DNA of 64,000 nucleotides from assembly GCA_031419075.1 (NCBI GenBank), contig JANOKD010000069.1, positions 2,313-66,312 on the forward strand, given 5' to 3'. Of this stretch, positions 5,841 to 25,026 are shown piece after piece (position 1 is the first letter of the stretch; each line of letters starts with the position of its first letter). A program made the translations under genes and the position numbers. The stretch is from Lysobacterales bacterium. Its GTDB lineage: Bacteria; Pseudomonadota; Gammaproteobacteria; Xanthomonadales; Xanthomonadaceae. The notes under the pieces are model-generated. The model searched no databases. It was not told the DNA's origin and was given only the letters and a program-made list of their open reading frames with translations.

Positions 5841-5865
5841 CCCCTCCCCCGCATGCGGGGGAAGG
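5841..5865. repeat. Palindromic repeat (CCCCTCCCCCGCATGCGGGGGAAGG), member of CCCTCTCCC...GGGAGAGGG family
   Basis: Imperfect palindrome between sucC and sucD resembling copies at 6861, 6948, 7414, 24971. Confidence 0.65.
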
Positions 5866-5889: not shown

Positions 5890-6765
5890 ATGTCCGTTCT
5901 CGTCAACAAACACACCAAAGTCATCGTCCAGGGCTTCACCGGCCAGCAGGGCACCTTCCACGCGCAGCAGATGCTGGAATACGGCACCCAGGTTGTCGGT
6001 GGCGTCACGCCGGGCAAGGGCGGCAGCGAGCACATCGGCCTGCCGGTATTCAACACCGTCGCCGAAGCCGTGAAGACCACCGGCGCCGACGCCTCCGTCA
6101 TCTACGTGCCGCCGCCGTTCGCGGCCGACGCCATTCTGGAAGCAGCCGATGCCGGTATCCGGGTCATCGTGTGCATCACCGAAGGCATTCCGGTGCTGGA
6201 TATGCTGCGGGTGAAAAATACGCTGAAGGGCTATCCCGACACCGTGCTGATCGGCCCGAACTGCCCCGGCGTCATCACTCCGGGCGAATGCAAAATCGGC
6301 ATCATGCCGGGCCACATCCACATGCCGGGCATGATCGGCATCGTCTCGCGCTCCGGCACGCTGACCTACGAAGCCGTGAAGCAGACCACCGACGCCGGCC
6401 TCGGTCAGAGCACCTGCATAGGCATCGGCGGCGACCCGATCAACGGCACCAACTTCATCGACGCGCTGAAATTGTTTCAGAACGACCCGCAGACCCAAGG
6501 CATCATCATGGTCGGCGAAATCGGCGGCAGCGCTGAAGAAGAAGCGGCCGAATACATCGCCCAGTACGTCACCAAGCCGGTGGTTGGCTTCATCGCCGGT
6601 GCGTCCGCGCCTGTGGGCAAGCGCATGGGCCACGCTGGCGCGATTGCGTCCGGCGGCAAGGGCACCGCTGAAGGCAAGTTCGCGGCGATGGAGAAGGCCG
6701 GTATCACCACGGTGCGTTCGCCGGGCGATCTGGGTGCCGCGATCGCCAAGCGTTTGGCGATGTAA
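5890..6765 (+). CDS. sucD: Succinyl-CoA synthetase alpha subunit
   Basis: [32 protein letters not shown] phospho-His motif. Confidence 0.97.
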
Positions 6766-6790: not shown

Positions 6791-6817
6791 AAAAAAACCG
6801 CCTTCGGGCGGTTTTTT
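6791..6817. terminator. Bidirectional rho-independent terminator after sucD
   Basis: A7-CCGCC-TTCG-GGCGG-T6. Confidence 0.85.
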
Positions 6818-6848
6818 GTTTGTGCGTTGAAGATTTCCAGCAGAAGCG

Positions 6849-6986
6849 CCCTCCCCCCTGCCCCTCTCCCGCAAGCGGGAGAGGGGTTGTTCTTTTGGTC
6901 TTAGTCTCTGTTTCGATACCGATACCGATGCCGATGCGAAAGATTTTCCCCTCTCCCGCCTGCGGGAGAGGGGCAGGGGTGAGGGC
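6849..6986. repeat. Inverted doublet of CCCCTCTCCCGC-nn-GCGGGAGAGGGG palindromes with hexamer-repeat spacer
   Basis: Palindromes at 6861-6886 and 6948-6973 with mirror-image tails; spacer contains CGATAC/CGATGC repeats. Confidence 0.85.
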
Positions 6987-7057
6987 GCGACGCGGCATTT
7001 CCCTACAGACAGCAGGCTTTCCAACTTCCACGATGCTCCACCAGAAGGAGCAGCATC

Positions 7058-7459
7058 ATGCGGGAAGGTCAGAAAACAGGTTTCGCCAAGCGACTGCGTC
7101 GCGAAATGACCGACGCTGAGCGACTGCTGTGGCATTACCTCCGGAATCGTTCAACAGATGGCCGGAAATTCCGGCGCCAGTGCCCGCTCGGTGCATATAT
7201 CGTGGATTTCGTGTGCACCGAAGCAAGACTTGTGGTCGAGGTGGATGGTGGTCAGCATGTCGGTTCACAGTACGATGCGATTAGAACGGCCTACTTCGAA
7301 TCTGTCGGATTTCGCGTGGTGAGATTCTGGAATACCGATGTGCTGATCGATACGGAGGCTGTACTCTCCGTTGTCTATAACGAGTTGACCGCCCTAGATA
7401 TCCATCGCCCCAACCCCTCGCCCGCAGACGGGAGCGGGGCTAAAAGTGAACTCCCATGA
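7058..7459 (+). CDS. DUF559 / Vsr-like (PD-(D/E)XK) endonuclease
   Basis: LRREMTDAERLLW, FRRQ, YIVDF, VEVDGGQH, RFWN motifs; stop overlaps nadE start (ATGA). Confidence 0.88.
   Translation: MREGQKTGFAKRLRREMTDAERLLWHYLRNRSTDGRKFRRQCPLGAYIVDFVCTEARLVVEVDGGQHVGSQYDAIRTAYFESVGFRVVRFWNTDVLIDTEAVLSVVYNELTALDIHRPNPSPADGSGAKSELP
7406..7440. repeat. Degenerate palindrome of the same family inside the DUF559 3' end
   Basis: CGCCCCAACCCCTCGCCCGCAGACGGGAGCGGGGC, inverted relative to the 6948-6986 copy. Confidence 0.7.
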
Positions 7460-9096
7460 CCACAACGCTTCGCGTCGCCCTCGCACAGTTCGATTTTCCA
7501 GTCGGCGCGGTACACAAGAACGCCGAACGCATCGCGATGATGATTACTGAGGCCCGCGACGAATACGGCGCGGATATCGTGATGTTTCCGGAACTGGCGC
7601 TGTCGGGATATCCGCCCGAAGATCTGCTGCTGCGGCCGAGTTTCCTGCGCGATTGCGCGGCCGCGATCGAGGCCGTTGCCGCTGCGGCGACCGGCGGCAT
7701 CACTGCGGTGGTCGGTTGGCCAGAGGTGGCGGGCAGCGTGGTCTACAACGCCGCCAGCGTGCTGCGCGACGGTGAAGTGCTGCAGACGTATCGCAAGCGC
7801 GAGCTGCCGAACTATGCGGTGTTCGATGAGCGCCGCTATTTCGACGTCGACCCGGATCGCGAAGACTGCGTGTTCGACGTCAAAGGCGTGCCGGTCGGGC
7901 TGATCATCTGCGAAGACCTGTGGTTCGCCGAACCCATCGCCAGCACCGTGCGCAGCGGCGCGCAGCTGGTGCTGGTGCCGAACGCCTCGCCGTTCGAACG
8001 CGACAAGCACGCGCAGCGCGATGCACTGTTGGCGCAGCGCGTGCACGAGTGCGGTGCCGCCATCGCCTATCTCAATGTGGTCGGCGGTCAGGACGCCTTG
8101 GTCTTCGACGGCGCGTCGGTGGTCGCCGACGGTGACGGCGTGGTGCATCCGGCCGCGGCTGCGTTCACCGACCAGTGGCTGGTGGTCGATTACGACGCCG
8201 GCGCGCGCCGTTTCACGCCAGTGCAGTGGGTGGACGACGGCGATGAGAGTCGCGACGCGCTTGCGTGGCGCGCGATCGTGCGCGGTATCCGCGATTATTG
8301 CGGCAAGAATGGTTTTCAGAAGACATGGTTGGGCCTGTCCGGCGGCATCGATTCGTCGATGGTGCTCGCCCTCGCGGTCGACGCGCTGGGTGCGGACAAC
8401 GTCACCGCGGTGCGGATGCCGTCGCGCTACACCGCCGATCTGTCCAACGACCTCGCCGAAGAACAGTGCAAGGCGCTGGGCGTGAAGATGATGACGATCG
8501 CGATCGAAAAGCCTTTTCAGGGCTATCTCGATGCATTGGCCGAAGTCTTTGCCGACCATGCTGTCGACGTGACCGAAGAAAATCTGCAGTCGCGCACCCG
8601 TGGCGCGATGCTGATGGCGCTTGCCAACAAACTCGGTGGGCTGTTGCTGACCACCGGCAACAAAAGCGAGTATGCGGTGGGCTACGCGACCATCTACGGC
8701 GACATGTGCGGCGGCTATGCGCCGATCAAGGATTTGTACAAGACCGAAGTTTTTGCGCTGTCGCGCTGGCGCAACACCGTTGGCGGTGCGCCGGTGATTC
8801 CGCCGGCAGTCATCAGCAGGCCGCCCACCGCCGAGCTGCGCGAGAACCAGAAAGACGAGGATTCGCTGCCGCCGTACGATGTGCTCGATGCGATCCTGCT
8901 GCGTCATGTCGATCAGGAACAGTCGCGCGAAGAGATCGTGCGCGCCGGTTTCGACGCCGCCACCGTCGACCGCGTGCTGCGCTTGGTGCGGATCAGCGAG
9001 TGGAAACGGCATCAGTCCGCGCCGGGGCCGAAAGTCTCGCGCCGCGCCTTCGGCCGCGAGCGGCGGTATCCGATCACCAGCGGCTATTCGGCATAG
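7456..9096 (+). CDS. nadE: Glutamine-dependent NAD+ synthetase
   Basis: Nitrilase-like domain (FPEL, KRELPNY, ICEDLW) plus LSGGIDSS, ENLQSR, TGNKSE synthetase motifs. Confidence 0.96.
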   Translation: MTTTLRVALAQFDFPVGAVHKNAERIAMMITEARDEYGADIVMFPELALSGYPPEDLLLRPSFLRDCAAAIEAVAAAATGGITAVVGWPEVAGSVVYNAASVLRDGEVLQTYRKRELPNYAVFDERRYFDVDPDREDCVFDVKGVPVGLIICEDLWFAEPIASTVRSGAQLVLVPNASPFERDKHAQRDALLAQRVHECGAAIAYLNVVGGQDALVFDGASVVADGDGVVHPAAAAFTDQWLVVDYDAGARRFTPVQWVDDGDESRDALAWRAIVRGIRDYCGKNGFQKTWLGLSGGIDSSMVLALAVDALGADNVTAVRMPSRYTADLSNDLAEEQCKALGVKMMTIAIEKPFQGYLDALAEVFADHAVDVTEENLQSRTRGAMLMALANKLGGLLLTTGNKSEYAVGYATIYGDMCGGYAPIKDLYKTEVFALSRWRNTVGGAPVIPPAVISRPPTAELRENQKDEDSLPPYDVLDAILLRHVDQEQSREEIVRAGFDAATVDRVLRLVRISEWKRHQSAPGPKVSRRAFGRERRYPITSGYSA

Positions 9097-24863: not shown

Positions 24864-24883
24864 CCGATTAACGACAACCGCTC

Positions 24884-24912
24884 TCATCCCGAACGAAGCT
24901 GAGGGATCTGCT
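24884..24912. repeat. Single TCATCCCGAAC...GAGGGATCTGCT repeat
   Basis: Same family as the array at 28.6-29.2 kb. Confidence 0.7.
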
Positions 24913-24957
24913 TTCTGTTCTGCAAAAGCGAAGGAATCTGGTGAGAGTATCGAAAGC

Positions 24958-25026
24958 GCCCTCACCCTAACCCTCTCCCGCGCGCGGGAGAGGGAAGAGC
25001 GCGCACAGCGCGCGAGGGTGAGGGGC
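24958..25026. repeat. CCCTCTCCC...GGGAGAGGG palindrome with CCCTCACCC/GGGTGAGGG tails
   Basis: Perfect palindrome CCCTCTCCCGCGCGCGGGAGAGGG at 24971-24994. Confidence 0.8.

Follow-up and report, generated by a model that had tools for sequence, protein, structure and literature searches.

A DUF559 nuclease gene framed by BoxC/PIT/TMECO repeats between sucD and nadE, a candidate partner enzyme of the repeats

Does a small nuclease gene with inverted palindromes on both sides belong together with the repeats that frame it? The question is raised by a 64,000-nucleotide stretch of DNA (the window) from a Lysobacterales genome (assembly GCA_031419075.1, contig JANOKD010000069.1, positions 2,313 to 66,312; genome G000 below). 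The gene codes for a protein of DUF559, a family of small nucleases that is very large and for which a structure has been solved. A first-pass annotation of this DNA had placed an intact DUF559 gene between the sucD terminator and nadE, with its stop coupled to the nadE start. Profile matches and coordinates agree with that placement, and the stop and start codons overlap as ATGA. We consider it somewhat probable that the DUF559 gene and its framing TMECO/BoxC-type repeats are one co-evolving unit, in which the nuclease recognizes and cuts its own repeat subfamily and thereby yields copies of it.

The left neighbor of the cassette is sucD (positions 5890–6765 of the window). Its intrinsic terminator (6792–6817, plus strand), a hairpin AAAAAACCGCC-TTCG-GGCGGTTTTTT with a perfect 11+11 stem, forms the left edge of the inserted segment. 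Upstream of the DUF559 gene are two perfect 12+12 palindromes, CCCCTCTCCCGC-nn-GCGGGAGAGGGG, at 6861–6886 and 6948–6973. The outer copy (6846–6895, minus strand) has a C-rich tail, GCGCCCTCCCCCCTG, followed by the first of these hairpins, and its minus strand reads as a TMECO-like element from 6849 to 6885. The inner, gene-proximal copy (6939–6988, plus strand) has the second hairpin and a G-rich tail, CAGGGGTGAGGGCGC, directed toward the gene; its position and orientation recur at 60 or more loci of relatives. Together with their tails the palindromes form a 50-nt inverted doublet that is 88% complementary, in line with the doublet described in the first-pass annotation. Folded as single-stranded DNA, this doublet has an energy of −58.6 kcal/mol (z −12.9). 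Its spacer (6896–6938) holds a hexamer tandem of GATACC/GATGCC (6911–6935). The cassette leader (6989–7057, plus strand) has a conserved motif, TTTCCCTACAGA (6998–7009), and an AGGAG ribosome-binding site, and is homologous across the S1, S2, and S6 clades defined below. No sigma-70 consensus was found in a promoter scan of the leader. The right-hand copy (7402–7440, minus strand) consists of a degenerate C-rich tail and a hairpin (7414–7439) and lies inside the last 60 nt of the open reading frame (ORF), where it encodes the peptide ...RPNPSPADGSG.... It is followed by nadE (glutamine-dependent NAD synthetase; 7456–9096, plus strand), the usual right neighbor of S1 and S2 cassettes. The palindrome pattern has five matches in the window, with 0.00 expected, and the non-complemented reverse pattern has none in any of the 61 genomes searched (G000 and 60 relatives; 37 belong to the same genus). 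A chance origin of the repeat pattern is excluded.

The DUF559 gene (7058–7459, plus strand) is intact and codes for a 133-residue protein predicted to be a Vsr-like PD-(D/E)XK nuclease. It matches Pfam DUF559 (PF04480) with an E value of 1.1e-39 and 135 bits over profile positions 3–108 of 109. With a curated cut-off of 20.6 bits and a nearly full-length profile match, the protein is a member of DUF559 (PF04480, COG2852, YcjD-like). It also matches NCBIfam PRK09767 (E 8.6e-32), under the equivalog cut-off. The nearest solved structure is 3HRL (E 2.4e-26, 50% identity over ~98 residues, 16–113), an "endonuclease-like protein" of Neisseria gonorrhoeae from structural genomics and the only relative with a solved structure. 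Because this relative is solved and 50% identical, the fold of the window protein is fixed. Among 76 relatives, 26 positions are conserved at 90% or more, and the window protein has the consensus residue at 25 of them. Residues D50, E61, D63, H67, D73, and R76 are invariant or nearly so among the 76 sequences, and all are present in the window protein, including the conserved acidic and histidine positions of a Vsr-like PD-(D/E)XK site. The ratio of nonsynonymous to synonymous substitution rates (dN/dS) is given as 0.13–0.19 across all DUF559 clades and as 0.16–0.21 within that of the window gene, and these genes are under purifying selection. The Vsr model (PF03852) was not matched by the window protein, for which the profile search gave only DUF559 and a sub-threshold MTES_1575, and no C5-cytosine methyltransferase gene lies beside the window gene, whose neighbors are sucD and nadE. 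An anti-phage defense system was considered and dropped; no PADLOC model matched the protein significantly, and the sole match, marginal and partial, was to Hhe, at its C-terminal nuclease end (E 0.0018).

To place the cassette among its relatives, 77 DUF559 loci from 44 genomes were retrieved. Copy number across the 61 genomes ranges from 0 to 6, and some apparent absences may be assembly gaps, given that several of the relatives' assemblies are fragmented (in G033, the closest relative, the sequence upstream of nadE is unassembled). Nearly all 77 loci have the same architecture: a hairpin 20–160 bp upstream with its tail toward the gene, the ORF, and an inverted copy that runs tail-first in the last 4–90 nt of the ORF. 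Eight repeat subfamilies are distinguishable. Repeat subfamily follows protein clade: on a DUF559 tree of the protein core, from which the C-terminus encoded by the repeat was left out, subfamily labels change 12 times (minimum, 8), compared to a mean of 50.5 for shuffled labels, and none of 200 shuffles was as low. Throughout the genus, S3, S4, S5, and S7 are each found at a single syntenic locus, which also holds for S3 and S5 in other families of the order; S1 and S2 both lie directly upstream of nadE. The S6 clade is found in at least nine different contexts, with duplicates in G003. Most gene-repeat pairs have thus been resident for a long time and are frequently lost, and a single clade is mobile. 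In some relatives (L121 in G029, L136 in G026, L135 in G039, and L170/L171), the DUF559 frame runs far past the right-hand repeat, to 250–600 amino acids; these frames may be fusions or read-through artifacts.

G000 itself has three DUF559 genes, each adjoining a different repeat subfamily. The window gene is paired with S1. A gene at C17:15712-16014 is paired with S6 (CCTTCTCCCCGC-nnnn-GCGGGGAGAAGG), with five copies, of which two precede the ORF, one lies in its end, and two follow it, and a gene at C18:33644-33970 has an S7 doublet downstream. The genome-wide flanking proposed in the first-pass annotation was therefore found for all three genes here and for nearly all loci in relatives, in each case with a matched subfamily. 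Subfamilies with a resident gene are present in 21 (S1), 23 (S6), and 11 (S7) exact-pattern copies in G000; those with genes only in relatives are present in three copies (S2) or none (S3, S4, and S5). The S6-type gene lies just downstream of the end of an IS110-like transposase gene, amid five S6 copies (C17:15300-16500).

Exact subfamily patterns were counted in the 61 genomes, and gene-bearing and gene-less genomes were compared over the 37 congeners. Median copy numbers with the cognate gene present and absent are 7 and 0 for S1 (P = 0.005), 7 and 0 for S3 (P = 9e-6), 3.5 and 0 for S4 (P = 7e-9), and 21 and 1 for S6 (P = 3e-5). For S4, the repeat is present in all 12 genomes that carry the gene and in 1 of the 25 that lack it. 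When subfamilies were compared inside each genome, those with a resident gene had more copies in 22 of 26 genomes (P = 4e-6), and among phylogenetically independent pairs on the nadE tree, ~15–16 agree with the association and none or almost none oppose it. Dispersed copies are far more common with their cognate gene, as the first-pass annotation would have it, and the association is weak for S2, which was deliberately selected as the least favorable subfamily (median of three copies in gene-bearing genomes, barely above the gene's own flanks), and has exceptions elsewhere. Neither of the outcomes that would speak against that annotation, synteny of DUF559 without palindromes in all relatives or palindrome abundance uncorrelated with the gene, was observed.

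The sucD-nadE site is polymorphic. Eight congeners have the clean empty site that the first-pass annotation had suggested looking for, in which sucD and its terminator are followed by nadE after a spacer of 70–115 bp, without DUF559 or the palindrome. The order sucD-cassette-nadE is present in six genomes, including the window. In five or six others the cassette precedes nadE and follows nrdB and a thioesterase gene, and eight empty alleles share that context. DUF559 proteins at the nadE site are 47%–71% identical to that of the window, compared to 93%–99% for sucD and 82%–94% for nadE. S1 alleles at this site were identified in G000, G003, and G020, and S2 alleles in at least nine genomes. 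On the nadE tree, G000 (S1) is sister to G021 (S2); the two alleles are ~51% identical in amino acid sequence at one site in sister genomes with 99% identical sucD. The terminator form at 6792–6817 recurs at the left junction in G003. Since the window genome is sister to an S2 genome and has this terminator in common with G003, homologous allele replacement is the simplest account, and the S1 allele probably reached the window by replacement of the sucD-nadE interval. Comparison of occupied and empty sucD-nadE alleles, whose junction regions are diverged, revealed no target-site duplication or sharp cassette edge. Empty nadE alleles (L012, L014-L018, L021, and L022) have a conserved palindrome, TACACTGTGCGCCATCGCACAGTGGA, 10–40 bp before the nadE ATG. 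Cassette-bearing alleles do not have it, and nadE there abuts or overlaps the DUF559 stop. This palindrome is probably a nadE operator, and the DUF559 cassette probably rewires nadE expression.

To which family do the repeats belong? BoxC/PIT/TMECO elements, of which the name PIT stands for potential intrastrand triplex, have been known since the 1990s. They number in the thousands across hundreds of proteobacterial genomes and have been linked to instability of the genome. They were reportedly treated by Bachellier et al. in the 1990s and by Hoyne et al. in 2000. The 4.02-Mb genome has 672 perfect hairpins of at least 9 bp, of which 105 have a pyrimidine-rich 5' arm and three a purine-rich one. 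A loose pattern identified ~71 members genome-wide; their stems vary in a compensatory manner, and their purine tail has the form GGGTGAGGG. Judged by sequence, the repeats are not a new family but BoxC/PIT/TMECO elements. The published TMECO consensus is CCCTCNCCC-N3-6-GGGNGAGGG-N3-GGGNGAGGG (Holder et al. 2015, PMC4666352). In its strict form it is present at five sites in the genome, including window positions 24959–24994, and the copies at 6849–6885 and 6949–6985 fit only if the second loop is allowed 4 nt in place of 3. The window site is part of a solo composite S1 element (24959–25024) between convergent genes, with a folding energy of −32.9 kcal/mol (z −7.3), and it is the minus strand that fits the strict consensus (CCCTCTCCCGCGCGCGGGAGAGGGTTAGGGTGAGGG). 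As in BoxC/PIT/TMECO elements, a pyrimidine arm, a loop, a purine arm, a short loop, and a second purine segment follow each other (only hairpin energies were computed), and copies lie between genes, frequently as inverted pairs, differ in number among close relatives, and occupy unstable loci. They differ in that each subfamily here is tied to a DUF559 gene framed by it, and in that the stems are longer and GC-clamped (…CCCGC-nn-GCGGG…), some with extra inner hairpins. No transposase, integrase, other mobility function, or partner protein was found near TMECOs (Holder et al. 2015, PMC4666352), and no link between DUF559 or ycjD and these repeats was found in the accessible parts of the literature that mentions either.

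We searched for the same arrangement beyond the order. One genome per species was used, from Proteobacteria, Planctomycetota, Binatia, Nitrospirota, Chloroflexota, Bacteroidota, and other groups, which gave 78 DUF559 loci, 75 of them scored. The score was the best inverted repeat between windows upstream and downstream of the gene, and the same loci shifted by 2–5 kb served as controls (n = 513). The median bracketing score is 25 for real loci and 9.5 for shifted controls, and 57 of the 75 loci are above the 99th percentile of the controls (Mann-Whitney U, P = 2.6e-32). The arms are TMECO-like, with CCCTCCCC...GGGGAGGG and a G-rich tail. In Escherichia coli K-12, TMECO no. 9 (1,351,204–1,351,239) lies 168 bp downstream of ycjD, a DUF559 gene whose stop codon is within a decayed repeat copy; copies are on the downstream side only. 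A partial duplicate of the ycjD 3' end (…GGAGACGGTGCTGGAGAATATTC…CTGAACCG…) has the decayed TMECO at the stop on one side and TMECO no. 9, which is intact, on the other (K-12 1,351,040–1,351,900). The E. coli strains with tabulated TMECO counts are presumably of the phylogroups to which we assign them. The ycjD gene is present in phylogroups A, B1, and C and in ST69 and ST182, and is replaced elsewhere by eefRABCD (2026 study, PMC12817139). ST69 and ST182 lie within D and E, where they regained or kept the gene. TMECO counts are 13–30 in 29 A/B1/C strains, 1–2 in 16 B2 strains, and 6–13 in D, E, and F (Holder et al., Table S7, PMC4666352). Holder et al. mention ycjD solely among flanking genes, in a supplementary table. 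The direction of this contrast is as predicted.

These observations suggest how the unit could work. The Vsr-like nuclease would most likely recognize its own repeat subfamily, as a duplex palindrome, an extruded hairpin, or a folded triplex, and would nick or cut at the cognate repeat. Through repair of such breaks, or copying from them, the two framing copies would stay matched to each other, and solo and doublet copies of that subfamily elsewhere in the chromosome would be seeded and homogenized. The arrangement would parallel a REP-associated transposase (RAYT) serving its repetitive extragenic palindromes (REPs) or REPINs, except that the enzyme is unrelated and would act on DNA that is double-stranded or structured. 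In one genome several orthogonal pairs coexist (here S1 at sucD-nadE, S6, and S7), most of them at fixed loci with vertical inheritance and frequent loss. The first-pass annotation had likened the locus to REP and RAYT and had proposed DUF559 as the mobilizer or maintenance enzyme. That analogy is supported computationally, and binding or cutting of the repeat by the protein, with copies produced as a result, is a prediction from sequence. More tentatively, and with less than an even chance in our estimate, DUF559 as a family may be the cognate site- or structure-specific nucleases of triplex-forming BoxC/PIT/TMECO repeats across Bacteria, a second, RAYT-independent class of repeat and enzyme in which orthogonal pairs coexist and the enzyme would create, homogenize, and spread its repeats by break-induced copying.

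A number of observations weigh against a nuclease that makes copies of its own repeat. The right-hand copy in the window is decayed: it is 85% identical to the reference copy and has a broken stem, a z of −1.1, and a degenerate tail (CCATCGCCCC, where relatives have CCCTCACCCC). The first-pass annotation was right about its location in the gene's 3' end and overstated its intactness. The abundant solo S1 copies are composite, with extra inner hairpins and ATG loops, and differ from the gene-flanking copies. The S6 gene of G000 has an internal in-frame TAA, yet there are 23 S6 copies. The S2 association is gone once the gene's own flanks are discounted, and S2 copies occur without an S2 gene in G029 (30), G026 (16), and G018 (8 exact), the last of which has no DUF559 whatever. 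Other subfamilies also have copies without the cognate gene (24 S6 copies in G020; six S3 copies each in G012 and G034). Because copies persist in gene-less genomes, the repeats survive loss of the gene, in the way that REPINs survive loss of their RAYTs. In E. coli, the contrast amounts in essence to a single phylogenetic event, and phylogroups D, E, and F have their TMECOs without ycjD. Furthermore, most clades are syntenic, so much of the match between clade and subfamily is shared descent. Flanks that are matched to each other, differ between clades, and keep the same geometry go beyond shared descent.

Other explanations were weighed against the same data. The protein could be a caretaker or regulator, a nuclease or DNA-binding protein that recognizes its cognate repeats without spreading them and either processes replication-stalling hairpins or triplexes or autoregulates by way of its flanking copies, with repeats that multiply otherwise and a gene that is kept only while they are numerous. 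The co-occurrence and specificity data apply to it too, and it suits genes that in most clades are fixed, vertical, single-copy, under purifying selection, and housekeeping-like. In vitro, oligonucleotides of TMECO sequence fold into triplexes, and the loci of TMECOs are unstable (PMC4666352); the survival of repeats in gene-less genomes is also as this account would have it. We nevertheless think it unlikely. It leaves unexplained the two matched framing copies, their fixed geometry, and the position of one inside the ORF end; subfamilies without their gene are absent, not merely unrepaired (S3, S4, and S5 at zero in G000, and S4 in a single one of the 25 gene-less genomes); and no other mobilizing enzyme is evident. 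Presence and absence at one site, with clean empty alleles and two left contexts, could also mean that repeat, gene, and repeat together are a mobile element, of homing type or bounded by terminal inverted repeats, with solo copies as its targets or footprints. S1 and S2 alleles at one site in sister genomes, the many contexts of S6 and its duplicates in G003, and the presence of the homing endonuclease I-Bth0305I in the Vsr/DUF559 fold group (PMC3424549) point this way. This is less likely still, in that S3, S4, S5, and S7 each stay at one syntenic locus, junctions of occupied and empty alleles have neither a target-site duplication nor a sharp boundary, solo copies outnumber genes by 10–20 to 1, and ordinary homologous recombination explains the allele swap at sucD-nadE.

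DUF559 has an odds ratio of 14.3 among predicted targets of programmed inversion (PMC9881135), and one arm lies inside the ORF, which raises the idea that the framing repeats invert the gene for phase variation and that the dispersed copies are unrelated REP-like elements. We judge this very improbable: the leader and ribosome-binding site are within the bracket, and inversion would come without an obvious expression switch; no invertase gene is adjacent; any predictor based on inverted repeats would flag this anatomy; and dispersed copies specific to a subfamily are unexplained. Least credible of all is that generic REP-like elements, spread by RAYTs or otherwise, have piled up around dispensable DUF559 genes by coincidence or hitch-hiking. 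REP-like elements do cluster intergenically, the genome has RAYT-type genes, and other repeats are nearby. Against this, 3 of 3 genes, nearly all 77 loci, and 57 of 75 loci across phyla are bracketed, compared to 5% of shifted control positions; flanks are matched per locus and differ between clades; the RAYT genes go with another, GTAG-type REP; and TMECOs have no transposase or integrase nearby (Holder et al., PMC4666352).

The favored reading, a DUF559 gene co-evolving with its framing repeats, was compared to known systems. REP/REPIN-RAYT systems (Nunvar 2010; Bertels & Rainey 2011, 2017; PMC5581495, PMC8266576) likewise have a single-copy, mostly vertical nuclease gene framed by inverted copies of a dispersed repeat, inverted doublets, several orthogonal pairs per genome, and repeat populations that shrink yet linger after gene loss. 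Two features of a REPtron are found here, a gene framed by an inverted dispersed repeat with inverted doublets and a repeat population that goes with the cognate gene across genomes (strongly for S1, S3, S4, and S6, weakly for S2, and with exceptions). A third, an HUH/Y1 (IS200-like) transposase as the enzyme, is not. In place of an HUH/Y1 single-strand transposase, the enzyme here is DUF559, a PD-(D/E)XK Vsr-like nuclease of ~110 amino acids. Its repeat includes a third, purine-rich segment with triplex potential and has no GTAG/CGTC head, and one framing copy is translated as the protein C-terminus. Given these differences in enzyme and repeat, the same mechanism is unlikely. A RAYT was also considered as the mobilizer and rejected; Y1_Tnp genes lie beside GTAG-type REPs, without the present repeats within 0.9–1.5 kb, and two are at contig ends, where flanks are incomplete. 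These two are at C31:16713-17039, beside GTAG-type REP hairpins (GTAGCCCRGGTAAG…), and at C77:232-513. The C31 RAYT and its GTAG-type REP are a separate repeat-enzyme pair in the same genome.

Vsr (PF03852; 1CW0) has its fold group and catalytic architecture in common with the window protein (PMC3424549, group 58), and the YcjD profile detects Vsr at 1e-5 (PMC1189080). It differs in that the window protein matches DUF559 and not the Vsr model, has no adjacent cytosine methyltransferase, and sits in a repeat bracket and not in a dcm-vsr pair. I-Bth0305I-type homing endonucleases (3R3P) use the same fold in selfish site-specific cutting, and presence and absence at one site resembles homing. Unlike them, the DUF559 gene is free-standing between genes, resides in no intron or intein, has no long DNA-binding extension, and is syntenic in most clades. 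3HRL and E. coli YcjD are direct sequence relatives of the window protein, and YcjD also has a nearby TMECO and a decayed copy.

If the tie between DUF559 and its repeats is true, both would acquire a role that can be tested in E. coli K-12 itself (ycjD, 23 TMECOs). It would add a second, mechanistically different domesticated nuclease that lives with a repeat population, account for DUF559 among predicted inversion targets, and provide a set of naturally orthogonal pairs of nuclease and recognition site. With eight subfamilies and independent gains and losses, the genus is an unusually clean natural experiment.

Additional repeats were identified in the window and its relatives. A further family member, CCCTCCCCCGCATGCGGGGGAAGG, lies at 5842–5865 in a 75-bp spacer between sucC and sucD; these two genes usually abut within the operon. 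The site of the solo copy at ~24971 was compared in 12 relatives, in most of which the interval is rearranged and in the two closest of which it is not assembled. Another dispersed repeat (...TGTCATCCCGAACGAGG...) is present at window positions 24873–24921 and on many contigs, often adjoining CCTGCCCCCGCGAAGGCGGGGGAG hairpins, with dozens of matches in 12 relatives. Tandem repeats also adjoin the framing repeats, such as (GATACC/GATGCC)x4 in the S1 doublet spacer and (GGCTGT)x4 in the S7 doublet spacer (G000 C18, ~34100), and (AAAAGTCGGCG)x5 is found downstream of the G003 cassette (L009, ~2360–2420). Short tandems beside the repeats may reflect slippage next to structure-forming DNA.

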